This document shows, one piece after another, positions 17,666 to 43,532 of a stretch of 64,000 bases of DNA. The stretch spans positions 13,946 through 77,945 of the forward strand of contig PXUB01000029.1 in assembly GCA_003009755.1 (NCBI GenBank), read 5' to 3'. A program made the position numbers and the translations under genes. The DNA is from Thermoplasmatales archaeon SW_10_69_26 (GTDB lineage: Archaea; Thermoplasmatota; SW-10-69-26). Numbering within the stretch: the first letter of the stretch is position 1; every line of letters starts with the position of its first letter. The notes below the pieces were generated by a model that made no database searches, was not told the origin of the DNA, and worked only from the letters and a program-made list of their open reading frames with translations.

Positions 17666-17913
17666 GAAGATCCTCTTTTCGACGGGGCCTAGCCGCCTCT
17701 CGACCGGGGAAAAGGAAAATCGCTGTTAAGGAAAACCCCGGTCGGCAGCGTCCGGAGGCGCCGGTGCCGACCGTCTGGCGCCTCCGGAGAAGACGGATCT
17801 TCGATCCGTCCGAAACGCAGGCCCCAGCGCCGCTGACCTTGGGCGCTGTTGGATCCTCGCGCAGGGCTATGTCCGCCTGACGGGCAACGACACCATCGCT
17901 CGTCGTGGGTCCC
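17666..17913 (+). mobile_element. MITE-like hairpin-rich repeat, family 2 (empty copy)
   Basis: Inverted near-copy of 33002-33346 lacking the 95 bp internal insert; partial copies at 42168-42320 and ~63965-64000. Confidence 0.8.
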
Positions 17914-33001: not shown

Positions 33002-33346
33002 GGGACCCACGCGGGTCCGCTCGCGTCGAAGCTCGTCAGGCGGACATAGCCCTGCGCGAGGATCCAACAGCGTCTAAGGTCAGCAACGCTGGGGTCTGCG
33101 TTTCGGACGGATCGAAGATCCGTTCTCTCCCGAGGCGCCAGACGGTCGGCACCGGCGCCTCCGGACGCTGGCGACCCCAGTTTTCTTCCGGAGATCGGCG
33201 ACACCGTTCGGTCTCCGGAGAGGCCGAAGCTCCGCTTCGGCCGGATTGCGAGGGTTCCTGCCGCCAGGCGAACCCTCCATCTTAACAGCGAAGATTTCTT
33301 TTCCCCGGTCGAGAGGCGGCTGGGCCCCGTCGAAAAGAAGATCTTC
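33002..33346 (-). mobile_element. MITE-like repeat, family 2 (filled copy with 95 bp hairpin insert)
   Basis: Homologous to 17666-17913; extra 33186-33280 consists of three hairpins. Confidence 0.8.
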
Positions 33347-39508: not shown

Positions 39509-40947
39509 ATGCGGGCCTGTGTGCCCGAACATGTTCGGGACCAGCGCGGCCGAGCGGGCCTGCAGACGGGGGCTGTAAGGATAAGAAATGGGGGGGACCA
39601 CCATGTACGCGAAGGGACGCCAGGGCACAAAGGCGAGCAGCTGCCGTGACAAAGCCGCCCGGCGGCGAGTACACAGGCCCTTCGTGGCCTTGGCGATCCT
39701 TCGTGTCCTTCGCGGCCCTGCTTAACGAGACAGTCCTCGCCATCTCCCTGGTCACGGTCGGATGCGCCGGCCCGGCCGGGGAGCAGGTCGAGGACGCCGA
39801 GGCGATGACGCTATCGCCCGGCACCGACGCCGGCATGCCGCTCGTCCTGAACGAGACCAACAACACCGAGGACGTCACCGTCTCGACGAGCGAGGCGGGC
39901 GTCGAGGCCTCCCTGTCCGAGCCCGGCGAGGACGCTCCCGAGGGCTTTGCCGGCTGGCTCACCGTGTCCGCCAGCAAGGATGCCGAGGACGGGCAGCGGA
40001 TCATCGAGGTCAGCGTCGACGACGAGGAGCGCGAGCTCCCCGTCACCGTCGACGAGGCCGACGAGCCGGTCGAGATGGGCCAGACCGCCAACCTCACCTT
40101 CTCGGCTCGCACGCTCGAGGGCGAGCTCGTGCTGACGAACGACGCCAACGCGACCTCGGCCCCGATCCCGCAGGCGGCCTCCTTCCAGGAGCCCCGCAGC
40201 TTCGGTCCGACGTCGGTGCAGATCTCCCAGCGCAGCCAGCTTCCCACCGAGCTCGTGCAGGCGATCAACGGCTCCGAGGTCGGGCACAGCCTCACCGTCG
40301 AGGTGCCCGAGGTCTTCGGTCCCGAGAAGGTCGAGGATCAGACCGCCCGCGAGGAGACGATCGAGCGCGAGACGGAGATCCCCAACCAGCTCGACCTCCC
40401 CCGCCGCCAGGCCCAACAGCTGATCCCCCAGGACGCTCAGGAGGGCGACGAGGTCGACGTGCCCGTCACCCGGGACGGCCAAGGCGTCCCCTACGTGATC
40501 GAGAGTCTCGGTGAGCGCCAGGTGAGCCTCGCCATGGCCCTCGACGAGGGCGCCAACGTGACCCTCTACGAGGCCTGGCCCGACCAGGCTCAGGTGACCA
40601 ACACCACCGGCGAGAACGCCACGATCCAGCTCTCGCCCGACGTTAAGGAAGGCCACACGCTCACCTGGAACGAGAACTGGGGCAACGTGACCGAGGTCAC
40701 CTCCTACACGAACGAGACGATCGTCCTCCGCCACACCCCGGAGATCGGCACCACCTACGAGACGACCGACCGCCGCTCGCAGCAGGCGATCGAGACGGAG
40801 GTCGTCGACCTGACCGAGGATCAGGTCATCCTCGAGCAGACGAACCCGCACCCGCTCGCCGGGCAGACGATCGTCTTCGACGTCACGATCGAGAGCGCCC
40901 AGGACGCGCCTCAACAGCCCCGCCCCCCGCAACGACCGCAGCGCTGA
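39509..40947 (+). CDS. FKBP/SlyD-like lipoprotein, signal peptide interrupted by a MITE
   Basis: Lipobox TVGC; split FKBP fold ending NPHPLAGQTIVFDVTI; ATG 39509 is in frame only if 39573-39733 is removed; alternative GTG 39703 lies inside the MITE. Confidence 0.75.
39573..39733 (+). mobile_element. MITE-like element, family 1, copy 2, inserted in the 5' end of the FKBP gene
   Basis: CTGTAAGGATAAG...CTTAACGAGACAG; 161 bp. Confidence 0.88.
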
Positions 40948-40989
40948 TGCCTCACCCGGGTGAGGCCGGCCGCTCGCGGGTGGCCCCAG

Positions 40990-41190
40990 CGGCCGCCTGC
41001 AGGCTCGGCCACGCGCTCGACGGGATCGAACCCGTGCTCGGCCGCCACCGGCCGGCGGGGGTCGAGGTCGCCTTGACGTCGTAGAGGACCCGCCGGCCCT
41101 CGGGCGTCTGGAGGGACTCGACGGCGACCACGTCGGTCCCGGCCGCCTCCACGATCCGCCGGCCAGTCTCGACGGCTTCCTCGGGCTGGG
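40990..41190 (-). pseudogene. ATP-grasp (RimK-like) C-terminal remnant
   Basis: AVETGRRIVEAAGTDVVAVESLQTPEGRRVLYDV, then frameshifted RPVAAEHGFDPVERVAE. Confidence 0.6.
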
Positions 41191-41200
41191 CGTCCTTGTC

Positions 41201-41494
41201 GCAGTGGGACCCTGGTCTGGGCAACGGGGCTGGCCTGGACAGCCGGTGGCGTCCCGAGACGCGGGGAAGATCGTTCGCGTCTCGGCAAAGGACGACCGCC
41301 GAGCGGTCGTCCGGACAGGCCTCCGCAGGTTCGATCACGAGAGCCGAAGGGGGGTGGCCCGGCTCTCGTGAGAGCCCGAGGGCGGCGAGGTCGCTCGCCT
41401 TCGGGCGGATCGCCAGGGCGCGGCGGCCACGGTTCGGGCCTTGGCGAGAGCAGGTCCGGCCGGAGGGAGGACGTGCGGAATCCTGCCCCCTGCA
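41201..41494 (+). ncRNA. expanded tRNA-Leu-derived copy with 64 bp and 145 bp hairpin inserts (pseudo-tRNA or novel RNA)
   Basis: Removing 41252-41315 and 41335-41479 leaves 85 nt colinear with the tRNA at 41536, with 6 substitutions. Confidence 0.8.
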
Positions 41495-41535
41495 TCGCAG
41501 GGTTCTTCCAACGCGCTGGGCTGGGCGTGCTTGTC

Positions 41536-41620
41536 GCAGGGGTACCCTAGTCTGGGCAACGGGGCTGGCCTTAAGAGCCGGTGGCGCAGGCCTCCGCAGG
41601 TTCGAATCCTGCCCCCTGCA
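41536..41620 (+). tRNA. tRNA-Leu (TAA), no encoded CCA
   Basis: GCAGGGG/CCCCTGC acceptor, CTGGC-CTTAAGA-GCCGG anticodon arm, long variable arm, GCAGG-TTCGAAT-CCTGC T arm, A73. Confidence 0.95.
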
Positions 41621-41664
41621 CTGACGGACTCGAGCCAAGGATGGCGGGGCAGGATGAGAACCCT

Positions 41665-41768
41665 GGTTCGATCCGGAGATTCGGCGGAGAAGGGGATGAA
41701 TCTGCGGAGCGGCCGAACGAGCACCGCGAGTTCGGCCAGAATCCTGCCCCCTGCACTGACGAACTCGA
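41665..41768 (+). repeat. duplicated tRNA 3' end carrying a 69 bp two-hairpin insert in the T-loop
   Basis: GGTTCGA[41672-41740]ATCCTGCCCCCTGCA; 41739-41768 matches 41604-41633 at 29/30. Confidence 0.85.
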
Positions 41769-41901
41769 CGAGGGCCCGCACCCCCTTCCGAGGCCGTTTC
41801 GACGAGAGCATCGCCTCCCGAGGCGGTCTTCTCGGCTGAGACGAGCTGTGGGACAGGACCGAGAAGCGAAGGCTTATGAACGGAGCGCGCGTGGCCCTCG
41901 C

Positions 41902-42096
41902 ATGGCCACCGGCAAGGTCGCGTTCTTCCACGATCGGAAGGGCTACGGTTTCATCGAGACGAGCAGTGCCGACGACGACGTTTTCTTCCACGCGGAGGAC
42001 TTCGACGGCCCCGACCCCGAAGAAGGACAAGAGGTCGAGTTCGAGATCGAGCAAGCGGACCGCGGTCCCCGGGCAGTGAACCTCGAGTTCGCGTAG
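41902..42096 (+). CDS. cold-shock protein
   Basis: GKVAFF..RKGYGFI, DVFFH, RGPRAVN. Confidence 0.92.
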   Translation: MATGKVAFFHDRKGYGFIETSSADDDVFFHAEDFDGPDPEEGQEVEFEIEQADRGPRAVNLEFA

Positions 42097-42167
42097 CGGC
42101 TCCTTCCGTCCGTCTCGGCCTTCCCGCCGGCCCCTCCCGGGTGCCCGGTGCGGCTCCCATCGAACAT

Positions 42168-42320
42168 TTTTCGTTCCGAGGGCCTTGGCGTCTCTCGACA
42201 GGGTGAAAAAGACGGATCTTCGGCAACGAGGAAACCTCCTCGGGAGCGACCCAGCCGCCAGCGTCGCTGGTCTCGGGCGCGGTTGGATCCTCGCGCAAGG
42301 CTCCCTCGGCTTGACGGGCA
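42168..42320 (+). repeat. degenerate family 2 repeat copy
   Basis: Shares CTCTCGAC, GACGGATCTTCG, GTTGGATCCTCGCGCA and TGACGGGCA with the 17.7 kb copy. Confidence 0.7.
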
Positions 42321-42503
42321 GTGGTGTAAGTCCTGGCGTGGGGGGTCCGACGCCGGGAAACGAGATCCTCGGCGAGGAGGGGAACGGGGGTCCGGCGTCC
42401 GTCGGCCGGCGCCTTGGACTTCGTGGAGGACCATCCCCCCGGGCGACCGTCCGCGGCTTCGAGACCCCTCAGGCTTTCATAGCTCGGTTGCGGTGGCTCG
42501 CTC

Positions 42504-43532
42504 ATGCGCGCGTTCGGCTTCGAACAGCACGGCGGTCCCGAGGTCCTCGAGCACTTCGAGGTCGACCGGCCCGAGCCTGGCCCTGGCGAGGTCCGGGTCA
42601 AGACGGAGGCGGTGGCTCTCAACCACCTGGACATCTGGGTGCGCGAGGGCTGGCCGGGTCTGGATCTCGAGCTCCCCCACGTCCTCGGCACGGACACGGC
42701 CGGCGTCGTCGCCGAGACCGGTCCCAACGTGCAGGGCCTCGACCGTGGCGACCCGGTCGTCGTCAACCCGGCCCTGTGGTGCGGGTTCTGCCGCGCTTGC
42801 GAGCGCGGCGAGCAGTCGCTTTGCGAGAACTTCACGATCCTCGGCGAGCACGTGCGCGGCAGCCTCTGTGAGGAGGTCGTGGTGCCGGCCCGCAACGTGC
42901 TCGTCCGACCGGGGCGCCTGGAGACCCACGAGGCGGCGGCCGTTCCGCTCGTGTTCCAGACCGCTTGGCGGATGGCCAACCGCGGCGACATCCGGCCCGA
43001 CAACATCGTGTTCGTGCCGGGCGCCGGCGGCGGCGTCGCCACCGCCTCGATCCAGATCGCCAAGCACCTGGGCGCGCAGGTCATCGCTTCCACCAGCAGC
43101 GAGGAGAAGGCCGCCAAGGCCGAGAAGATCGGTGCCGACGACGTCGTCGACTACACCGAGGACGACTGGGGCGAGCAGGTGTACGACCTAACGCAGGGTG
43201 AAGGCGTCGACGTCGTGCTCGACAGCGTCGGCGAGGAGGTCTGGGCCGAAGCCCAGCGCTTCCTCACGGACGGCGGCGACCTCGTCTGCTGCGGCGCCAC
43301 CAGCGGCCCCCAAGCGCAGCTGGATCTGCGCTACGTGTTCTACAACCAGCTGAGCTTCGTCGGATCCACGATGGCGTCCGCCAGCGAGTTCGACGAGATC
43401 ATGAGCCTGGTCTTCAACGGCTGGATGGAGCCGATCGTCGACTCGACGTTCAGCTTCGAGGAGGCGAACAAAGCCTTCGAGTACCTGGAGGACGGCCGCC
43501 AGTTCGGCAAGGTCGTCGTCGAGACGGCCTGA
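42504..43532 (+). CDS. zinc-binding alcohol dehydrogenase family oxidoreductase
   Basis: LNHLD, PHVLGTD, CGFCRAC...C, GAGGGVA, FGKVV. Confidence 0.9.
   Translation: MRAFGFEQHGGPEVLEHFEVDRPEPGPGEVRVKTEAVALNHLDIWVREGWPGLDLELPHVLGTDTAGVVAETGPNVQGLDRGDPVVVNPALWCGFCRACERGEQSLCENFTILGEHVRGSLCEEVVVPARNVLVRPGRLETHEAAAVPLVFQTAWRMANRGDIRPDNIVFVPGAGGGVATASIQIAKHLGAQVIASTSSEEKAAKAEKIGADDVVDYTEDDWGEQVYDLTQGEGVDVVLDSVGEEVWAEAQRFLTDGGDLVCCGATSGPQAQLDLRYVFYNQLSFVGSTMASASEFDEIMSLVFNGWMEPIVDSTFSFEEANKAFEYLEDGRQFGKVVVETA

Follow-up and report, generated by a model that had tools for sequence, protein, structure and literature searches.

In a 64,000-nt stretch of DNA from Thermoplasmatales archaeon SW_10_69_26 (contig PXUB01000029.1; hereafter the window), the single tRNA-Leu(UAA) gene is preceded by an enlarged tandem copy of itself at 41183-41495, termed here the giant copy, which, judging from its sequence, is probably a non-functional duplicate of the gene and its leader that carries three inserted modules. 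The duplication, the membership of the inserts in a module family, the presence of modules in the loops of other redundant tRNA copies, the intact adjacent gene and the variation among strains are observed. The larger result is that, from sequence comparison, an archaeon appears to possess a family of RtT-like repeats beside its tRNA genes, and similar units occur in a range of bacterial phyla. The assembly containing the window (G000) comprises 2.8 Mb in 49 contigs with 69% G+C and is 95% complete.

ARAGORN called a single tRNA in the window, the intact tRNA-Leu(taa) at 41536-41621 (+ strand, as for all features below unless stated otherwise), which is the only tRNA-Leu(UAA) of the whole assembly and scored 50 bits with the Rfam tRNA model, with nothing further at E<=1 within 40000-43000. 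A repeat search of the window revealed this gene again upstream as three collinear blocks, namely 41183-41251 against 41518-41586 (repeat D1; 62/69 identical, 90%, 18-nt leader included), 41316-41334 against 41587-41605 (repeat D5; 19/19) and 41478-41494 against 41604-41620 (repeat family D2; 17/17). The giant copy thus reads as the duplicated 18-nt 5' leader (41183-41200, the first 18 nt of D1); nt 1-51 of the pseudo-tRNA, with the acceptor 5' strand, D arm, anticodon arm (GGA) and start of the variable arm (41201-41251, D1); an insert of 64 nt in the variable loop (41252-41315); nt 52-70, with the 3' side of the variable arm, the T stem 5' strand and the T loop up to GGTTCGA (41316-41334, D5); an insert of 145 nt in the T loop (41335-41479); and nt 71-86, with the 3' part of the T loop, the 3' strands of the T and acceptor stems and the discriminator (41480-41495, from D2 and the in-silico comparison). 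The intact gene begins 40 nt 3' of its end. Cutting out the inserts in silico left 86 nt, in which the 85-86 nt of tRNA-Leu(UAA) were all represented, and this joined copy differed from the gene at nt 5 (G>T), 8 (T>G), 14 (A>G), 37 (T>G), 38 (A>G) and 40 (G>C), as well as at the last nucleotide. The change at nt 5 faces C and creates a U-C mismatch in the acceptor stem (pair 5-68), and the giant copy lacks U8 and A14, which are universally conserved in tRNAs, as well as a fully paired acceptor stem. ARAGORN read the joined copy as a tRNA-Ser(gga) with a cloverleaf, and on the genomic sequence the giant copy was recognized as a tRNA neither by ARAGORN (uninterrupted 41150-41530) nor by the Rfam model RF00005 (E<=1). 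The original prediction, made from the letters of the window alone, had described a complete 85-nt tRNA-Leu duplicate with an 18-nt leader, the two inserts with two units in the T loop, the six substitutions and the single acceptor mismatch, and the repeat blocks and the joined sequence agree with it throughout. It overlooked a third copy of the tRNA 3' end at 41739-41768 and did not see the inserts as members of a genome-wide RtT-like repeat family. Moreover, an 8-nt piece within 41491-41506, just 3' of the giant copy, is identical to the junction of leader and tRNA, taking in 2 nt of the former and 6 nt of the latter, which hints at a more complex duplication history.

Three matches of R1, a covariance model built from aligned archaeal units (see below), lie inside the giant copy, showing that the two inserts represent three copies of one module, which consists of two hairpins (HP1 and HP2) joined by a GAGAG linker, measures 64-75 nt here and recurs across the genome. 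Module 1 occupies the variable loop (41252-41315; R1 46.3 bits, E 1.6e-9, over 41231-41328), and modules 2 (41335-41404; 37.2 bits over 41326-41409, contig position C29:55271-55354) and 3 (41405-41479; 24.6 bits, E 4e-4, over 41402-41495) sit together at position 58/59 of the T loop. A perfect inverted repeat (I9, 12/12) pairs 41335-41346 with 41360-41371 inside module 2. Part of module 1 (41252-41298) is 85% identical to C34:9903-9948, beside tRNA-Arg(CCT), and part of module 3 (41413-41488) is 78% identical to C46:10658-10731, beside tRNA-Gln(CTG); all matches of the region elsewhere in G000 adjoin tRNA genes, on these two contigs and on C42 (Gln and Val) and C14 (Leu TAG). In total, 137 adjacent hairpin pairs were detected in G000, with 43 within 800 nt of an ARAGORN tRNA call and 94 beyond, and the modules far from tRNAs form arrays with fixed linkers. 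Within the window, such tRNA-distant modules occur at 17749-17815 (+), 33101-33167 (-) and 33165-33257 (+), as parts of a composite hairpin array of ~250 nt that recurs in G000 at C9:35400-35700, C9:39273-39413, C32:73650-74000 and C8:11857-11955. The motif GAGC-N2-6-GCGAG was found 1215 times genome-wide versus 1287 times in the reversed sequence, and with no excess it is uninformative outside a hairpin-loop context.

Similarly expanded duplicates, which the original prediction had suggested looking for, are found at the loci of tRNA-Ser(TGA), tRNA-Val(TAC), tRNA-Arg(TCG) and tRNA-Arg(CCT). On the 3' side of tRNA-Ser(TGA), a gene copy running from the D loop to the 3' end carries modules in the anticodon loop and the T loop, and on its 5' side three copies of the leader and 5' end have the D loop split by a reverse-oriented module, each followed by an inverted copy of the D-loop region. 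Similar 5' copies lie at tRNA-Arg(TCG), tRNA-Arg(CCT) and tRNA-Val(TAC), the last with a module at anticodon-loop position 32/33. The reverse orientation of the D-loop modules upstream of tRNA-Ser, tRNA-Arg(TCG) and tRNA-Arg(CCT) agrees with the strands of the R1 matches. The module sites seen are therefore the D loop, position 32/33, the variable loop and position 58/59. The earlier proposal, that of a pseudogene serving as a landing pad and thereby exposing a preference for loops, is supported by these modules in the D, anticodon, variable and T loops of other redundant copies in G000 and in relatives; its pseudogene part also fits the loss of U8, A14 and the acceptor pair and the strain variation in the anticodon and D stem.

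All 10 listed sequencing runs carrying the stretch are labelled as halite metagenomes. The best holder (X1) yielded a 919-nt contig spanning 41039-41957 with zero differences, and a 411-nt contig of X4 (41170-41581, 4 differences and 1 gap) and a 292-nt contig of X2 (41268-41560, 3 differences and 1 gap), both from a study other than that of X1 and differing by 1-1.4%, bridge the inserts into the real gene. Because contigs from independent samples bridge the structure, the giant copy is not an accident of assembly and has read support beyond the present assembly. A chimeric joining of repeat-containing reads, which the repeat-rich region and the ending of short-read contigs of several runs around the giant copy might bring to mind, is hardly credible against the identical X1 contig and the two bridging contigs of the separate study. 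In addition, these runs exposed strain variation within the giant copy, namely 41238 G>A in X2, X3 and X4, which changes the middle anticodon base to give GAA, not GGA, 41241 A>G in X4, 41209 A>G in X3, a 1-nt deletion at 41210 in the D stem in X2, and 41367 C>G, which disrupts a hairpin pair. In the real tRNA-Leu gene in a relative's contigs, the paired changes 41569 C>G and 41577 G>C keep an anticodon-stem pair.

Shorter units of a standard plan also accompany the tRNA genes of this archaeon. In a default ARAGORN run (the long-intron setting gave mostly spurious calls), the last 16 nt of the tRNA recurred (at most 2 mismatches) in the 700 nt downstream for 18 of the 57 tRNA calls, and the first 16 nt recurred upstream for 4 of the 57, so that about one-third of the tRNA genes are flanked by duplicated tRNA pieces. 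The 57 calls are an overcount, as the Rfam tRNA model confirmed 41 tRNAs among the 53 candidates scored in G000, and at least one of the 18, a 'tRNA-Val' on C11, looks like a false call within coding-like sequence. The 27 downstream units extracted, with a standard length of 105-130 nt, consist in order of the trailer, an inverted T-arm copy, a short turn, GGTTCGA, HP1, a GAGAG-type linker, HP2 and AATCC with the tRNA 3' end. The inverted copy comprises the T arm without interruption and 2-5 nt from the 3' strand of the acceptor, reading GGAT-TCGAACC-like or, often, GGAT-GA-GAACC. One such unit follows the intact tRNA-Leu gene at 41646-41756 (R1 93.3 bits, E 3e-21, the unit itself being in the training set), with the inverted T arm and acceptor 3' strand, a GAACC..GGTTCGA hairpin, HP1, linker, HP2, and AATCC plus the 3' end; the last element belongs to the third copy of the tRNA 3' end, which starts in the T loop and continues into 13 nt of trailer (41739-41768, D2, 29/30 identical to 41604-41633). 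The minimum-energy fold of this unit and of nearly all others is a four-way junction, and an alignment of 18 units contained 24 consensus pairs, 16 of them with compensatory changes. With 150 of ~4800 candidates scored, R1 gave at least 41 matches in G000 at E<=0.01. The array on C27 consists of plain duplicates that are 96% identical. Orphan RtT-like units with no adjoining ARAGORN tRNA occur at C17:3795-3908 (-), C1:114241-114341 (-) and C2:37493-37589 (+), and the C17 unit ends in the 3' end of tRNA-Arg(TCT), a gene that sits on contig C19. A hammerhead-like core considered for the GGAUGAG segment was rejected by eye, as it is without C3 and U4; other copies bear the plain T-loop complement, and Rfam found no ribozyme in 40000-43000.

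The plan of these units recalls RtT RNA, the repeat units that follow the tyrT tRNA-Tyr genes of E. coli. Unit 41646-41756 lies directly 3' of a tRNA gene, ends in a copy of its 3' end and has the GGAUGAGAAC..GGUUCGA core and the outer stem; the T-loop insert of the giant copy likewise ends at AATCC and the tRNA 3' end, and the giant copy has the real tRNA 5' part instead of the core and outer stem. In our reading of the alignment, GAGC-N3-5-GCGAG occurs in the HP2 loop of 8 of the 18 aligned archaeal units. The Rfam RtT model RF00391 gave a best score of 18.5 bits on G000 versus its gathering threshold of 45 bits, with 2 of 4 weak matches coinciding exactly with R1 units, and no match at E<=1 in window positions 40000-43000. 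The archaeal units are thus filed as RtT-like and not as members, having the architecture of RtT yet failing its score test. Furthermore, a scan of one genome per species for GGATGAGAACC-N1-8-GGTTYG returned at least 120 stretches, nearly all bacterial. In 54 of the 120 listed, the motif lay downstream of a tRNA on its own strand and was accompanied, within 260 nt, by a copy of the 3' end of that tRNA; another 15 lay 13-250 nt after a tRNA with no 3'-end copy found (some end at the stretch edge), and 51 had no tRNA within 900 nt, about 13 of these being at the very edge of the stretch. The bacterial examples (L053-L172) come from Alpha- and Gammaproteobacteria, Paenibacillus, Gemmatimonadetes, Opitutaceae, Bacteroidota-type genera and Saccharibacteria, and their units are often in tandem and follow many different tRNAs. 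When seven bacterial loci were searched with Rfam, the Erwinia units were identified as RtT RNA (RF00391, 86.6 and 84.5 bits), one gammaproteobacterial locus scored 38.5 bits, below threshold, and the other five gave no RtT match. R1 recovered 12 units on 24 motif-picked bacterial loci (183 kb) at E 8e-5 to 0.08, with the Erwinia RtT and other bacterial units among those at E 8e-5 to 0.01, a test that is partly circular because the loci were picked by a motif contained in R1. A literature search, with subscription journals and supplements outside its scope, found no description of archaeal RtT-like units or of the module family.

Among relatives, R1 units were detected at E<=1e-5 in at least 6 of the 21 genomes of the class, as well as in two genomes (G024 and G035) from a different family of the phylum, each just 3' of a tRNA; these counts are lower bounds, as only 62-150 candidates per genome were scored and many of the genomes are incomplete. 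As to conservation in relatives, raised by the original prediction, two genera of the same family (G003 and G005) also have an expanded partial tRNA-Leu(UAA) copy upstream of the gene, and it is a different one, with the 5' part to the anticodon stem, two modules, and then the anticodon loop and stem. It lies ~250 nt upstream of tRNA-Leu(UAA) (G003, L002; G005, L006/L036). Its retained anticodon loop, with the module end before it, resembles an AACCTTA-type box located ~40 nt upstream of other G000 tRNA genes and may serve as the promoter of the real gene. Downstream of tRNA-Leu(UAA), G005 and G010 carry standard units with unrelated hairpin sequences.

As its second reading, the original prediction had offered a tRNA-scaffolded ncRNA, which gained no direct support here, and it had also raised the case of a tRNA that is spliced, charged with leucine and misreads Ser codons. 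A functional gene interrupted by two or three non-canonical introns, whose removal would yield an 85-nt tRNA with a Leu-type body and a GGA anticodon, would gain from the ARAGORN-accepted cloverleaf obtained by in-silico removal of the inserts, and G000 does encode a tRNA-splicing endonuclease (a ~350-aa frame on C41, 348-350 aa, with PF01974 at 68.7 and 28.2 bits and an Atlas annotation to the same effect) and at least one intron-bearing tRNA, a tRNA-Tyr of 115 nt with an ordinary intron. Archaeal introns are recognized as a bulge-helix-bulge, that is, a helix, a 3-nt bulge, a 4-bp helix, a 3-nt bulge and a helix. A scan with the junctions slid by +/-3 nt, which required a 4-bp central helix and at least 2 bp in both outer helices and was passed by 632 of 20000 random intervals (about 3%), found no canonical motif at either insert, as the earlier reading had already noted for the T-loop junctions. 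The two-domain single-chain form of the endonuclease, to which the 348-aa protein belongs, is one that we take to require canonical motifs. Moreover, U8 and A14 are gone, the acceptor stem has its U-C mismatch, the anticodon alternates between GGA and GAA among strains (GAA in X2-X4), a normal tRNA-Ser(GGA) is already encoded at C1:103670-103754, and the same modules occur in truncated, non-functional tRNA copies and far from tRNAs. A functional tRNA of this kind is accordingly very improbable, and a decaying duplicate is favoured over it on account of the missing bulge-helix-bulge, the loss of U8 and A14, the acceptor mismatch and the strain variants in the anticodon and D stem.

Two further explanations concern the units and the giant copy together. 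If both were functional structured RtT-like RNAs, one would expect joint transcription with the tRNA and release by tRNA-processing enzymes, a closing stem that mimics an acceptor/T minihelix, and hairpins that serve as protein-binding sites, as a sponge or as a regulator. The conserved four-way-junction fold with its many compensatory changes, the lack of an oligo-T tract between tRNA and unit in the window, the occurrence of GGATGAGAACC..GGTTCGA and, in 8 of 18 HP2 loops, GAGC-N3-5-GCGAG also in the Rfam RtT consensus, and the presence of units in 6 of 21 genomes of the class and two of another family are all compatible with such RNAs. However, palindromic repeats at the DNA level predict hairpin complementarity equally well, hairpin sequences turn over between genera at one tRNA locus, the bacterial examples place a terminator hairpin and a T-run between tRNA and unit, the giant copy is without the inverted T-arm copy that closes standard units, and it varies among strains, with one change breaking a stem; a functional RNA is thus considered unlikely. 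Even less is expected of the view that the tRNA-end duplicates are attL/attR scars of integrase elements that entered at the T, anticodon or D loops and lost their interior, with the hairpins as remnants of the arms, which we regard as quite unlikely. The direct repeats do extend from the T loop as far as the 3' end, the pattern of classical tRNA integration, single units have no second copy of the trailer, and all three tyrosine-recombinase (PF00589) matches in G000 adjoin tRNA genes, at C2:33474-33929 (-, Gly-CCC), C19:59113-59667 (-, Phe) and C1:122312-122803 (+, Glu/Ser), with hairpin modules between the recombinase gene and tRNA-Gly(CCC) on C2. Partial tRNA duplicates from integration have been described as pervasive (PMC9897764). 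On the other side, the giant copy duplicates a whole gene and its 5' leader and not one end, the units are only 105-130 nt long, non-coding and of conserved fold, unlike random remnants, and an inverted, tRNA-matched copy of the T arm is no product of simple site-specific integration. In addition, modules also occur in arrays distant from tRNAs, the copies are separated by no more than 105 nt (41634-41738) or by modules, with neither cargo nor integrase, and none of the 120 listed bacterial stretches has a 3'-end copy more than 260 nt away, which counts against the version with cargo.

Several observations weigh against a non-functional, module-loaded duplicate. Three of the six changes fall in the anticodon loop while the stems are otherwise intact (P = 0.006 for three of six in one given 7-nt loop, in a post hoc test), and selection instead of drift may lie behind this clustering; one event affecting several bases would account for it equally well. 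The fold of the units and the motifs that they have in common with bacterial RtT could, as far as the models go, point to a function at the RNA level, which a 'junk' reading ignores. In the array on C32, identity is 92-100% for the tRNA end, trailer and inverted copy and 57-65% for the hairpins, the latter about the level expected of unrelated sequence, and simple duplication leaves such shared ends with divergent hairpins unexplained. There is no RNA run among the 10 listed runs carrying the stretch. As for mobility, no match to the Y1 transposase (PF01797), to the TnpB nuclease domain (PF07282) or to a reverse transcriptase was found in the 95%-complete G000, so that a cognate Y1 transposase or TnpB of the REP/RAYT or IS200/IS605 kind was not identified, an absence of Y1 and TnpB that such completeness does not prove.

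The tRNA-Leu gene and its leader were duplicated in tandem, the downstream copy being intact and the upstream copy carrying modules and point changes. In the proposed course of events, the tips of tRNA-type hairpins would be where modules insert or recombine, and the modules would persist only in a dispensable copy, presumably since selection would remove a like insertion from the working gene. As a leading guess, the duplicates and inverted copies could arise by fold-back or template-switch replication, or by recombination at the palindromic arms of tRNAs, followed by colonization by modules and unequal crossing-over. A switch at the T-arm palindrome, with the T arm, 3' end and trailer copied again, would give the order seen in the trailer-repeating arrays (C29, C32 and C14). 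Fold-back or template switching fails, however, for single units with no repeated trailer (C46, C34 and C42), and it leaves unexplained why the centre of the inverted copy is repeatedly changed from TC to GA; from the sequence, this GA centre would face G57 and A58 as tandem G.A pairs.

More broadly, RtT-like units may form one family across Bacteria and Archaea, a possibility put forward only tentatively, in which the modules would be mobile cassettes homing to the tips of tRNA hairpins, each unit would be built from two copies of the T arm and 3' end of its host tRNA, one inverted and one direct, and the giant copy would capture an early stage of unit formation, in which a duplicate of the whole gene has been colonized and is still untrimmed. 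One report gives the mode of action of rtT RNA as unknown (10.1101/2024.07.17.603846). If the one-family reading is true, the giant copy would provide a handle on the decades-old question of the nature and origin of RtT, and a feature of E. coli tyrT would be a general property of prokaryotic tRNA loci, its origin open to comparison. Already in this halite archaeon, about one-third of the tRNA genes carry RtT-like units. The giant copy can be regarded as a natural experiment in which small hairpin repeats enter only the loops of a structured target, and it calls for caution, as long 'tRNA-like' stretches beside tRNA genes can be decaying, repeat-loaded duplicates.

Regarding the genomic context, open reading frames overlapping the giant-copy region matched no Pfam family, and an FKBP domain guessed for the upstream 568-aa open reading frame was unsupported by the Pfam search. 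A cold-shock protein gene lies at 41902-42096 (Pfam CSD, 63 bits), downstream of tRNA-Leu(UAA) and on the same strand; in G001-G005 it is upstream and on the opposite strand (loci L002-L006), and a contig of X4 joins 41552 to 41901 on opposite strands, which together suggest a local inversion in this lineage. ARAGORN found no tRNA-Trp in G000, with introns allowed or not; this gene may be unassembled, the genome being 95% complete, or interrupted in a way that ARAGORN cannot read.

Compared with known systems, the modules resemble the transposed introns of Thermoproteales and other archaea in being related short inserts at non-canonical D-, variable- and T-loop positions in several tRNAs of one genome. 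Those transposed introns form a bulge-helix-bulge and sit in the only, functional gene copy, whereas the inserts here are without that motif, lie in redundant or truncated copies and also occur in reverse orientation. Like REP, BIME and REPIN elements and the PATE palindromic repeats of haloarchaea, they are short hairpin repeats scattered in intergenic DNA and forming arrays with fixed linkers, yet they are strongly tied to tRNA loops and ends, and no RAYT/TnpA or TnpB was found with them in G000. In contrast to the partial tRNAs left by islands, proviruses and plasmids, there is no cargo or integrase between the copies here, the full gene and leader are duplicated, the small inserts are conserved and structured, and an inverted copy of the target is present. 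RtT offers the closest parallel, as its units also lie directly 3' of a tRNA gene, often in tandem, start with a segment complementary to the T stem and acceptor 3' strand followed by GGAUGAGAAC..GGUUCGA, contain small hairpins, one of them of the GAGCGAAGCGAG type, and end in AAUCC plus the tRNA's own 3' end, the outer stem of the Rfam consensus pairing both ends. In contrast to RtT, the archaeal units bear two long hairpins drawn from a genome-wide repeat pool, and the giant copy keeps the whole tRNA 5' part in place of the inverted copy. With the same GGTTCGA, hairpins and AATCC junction, the giant copy thus looks like an RtT-like unit that has retained a full tRNA 5' part.

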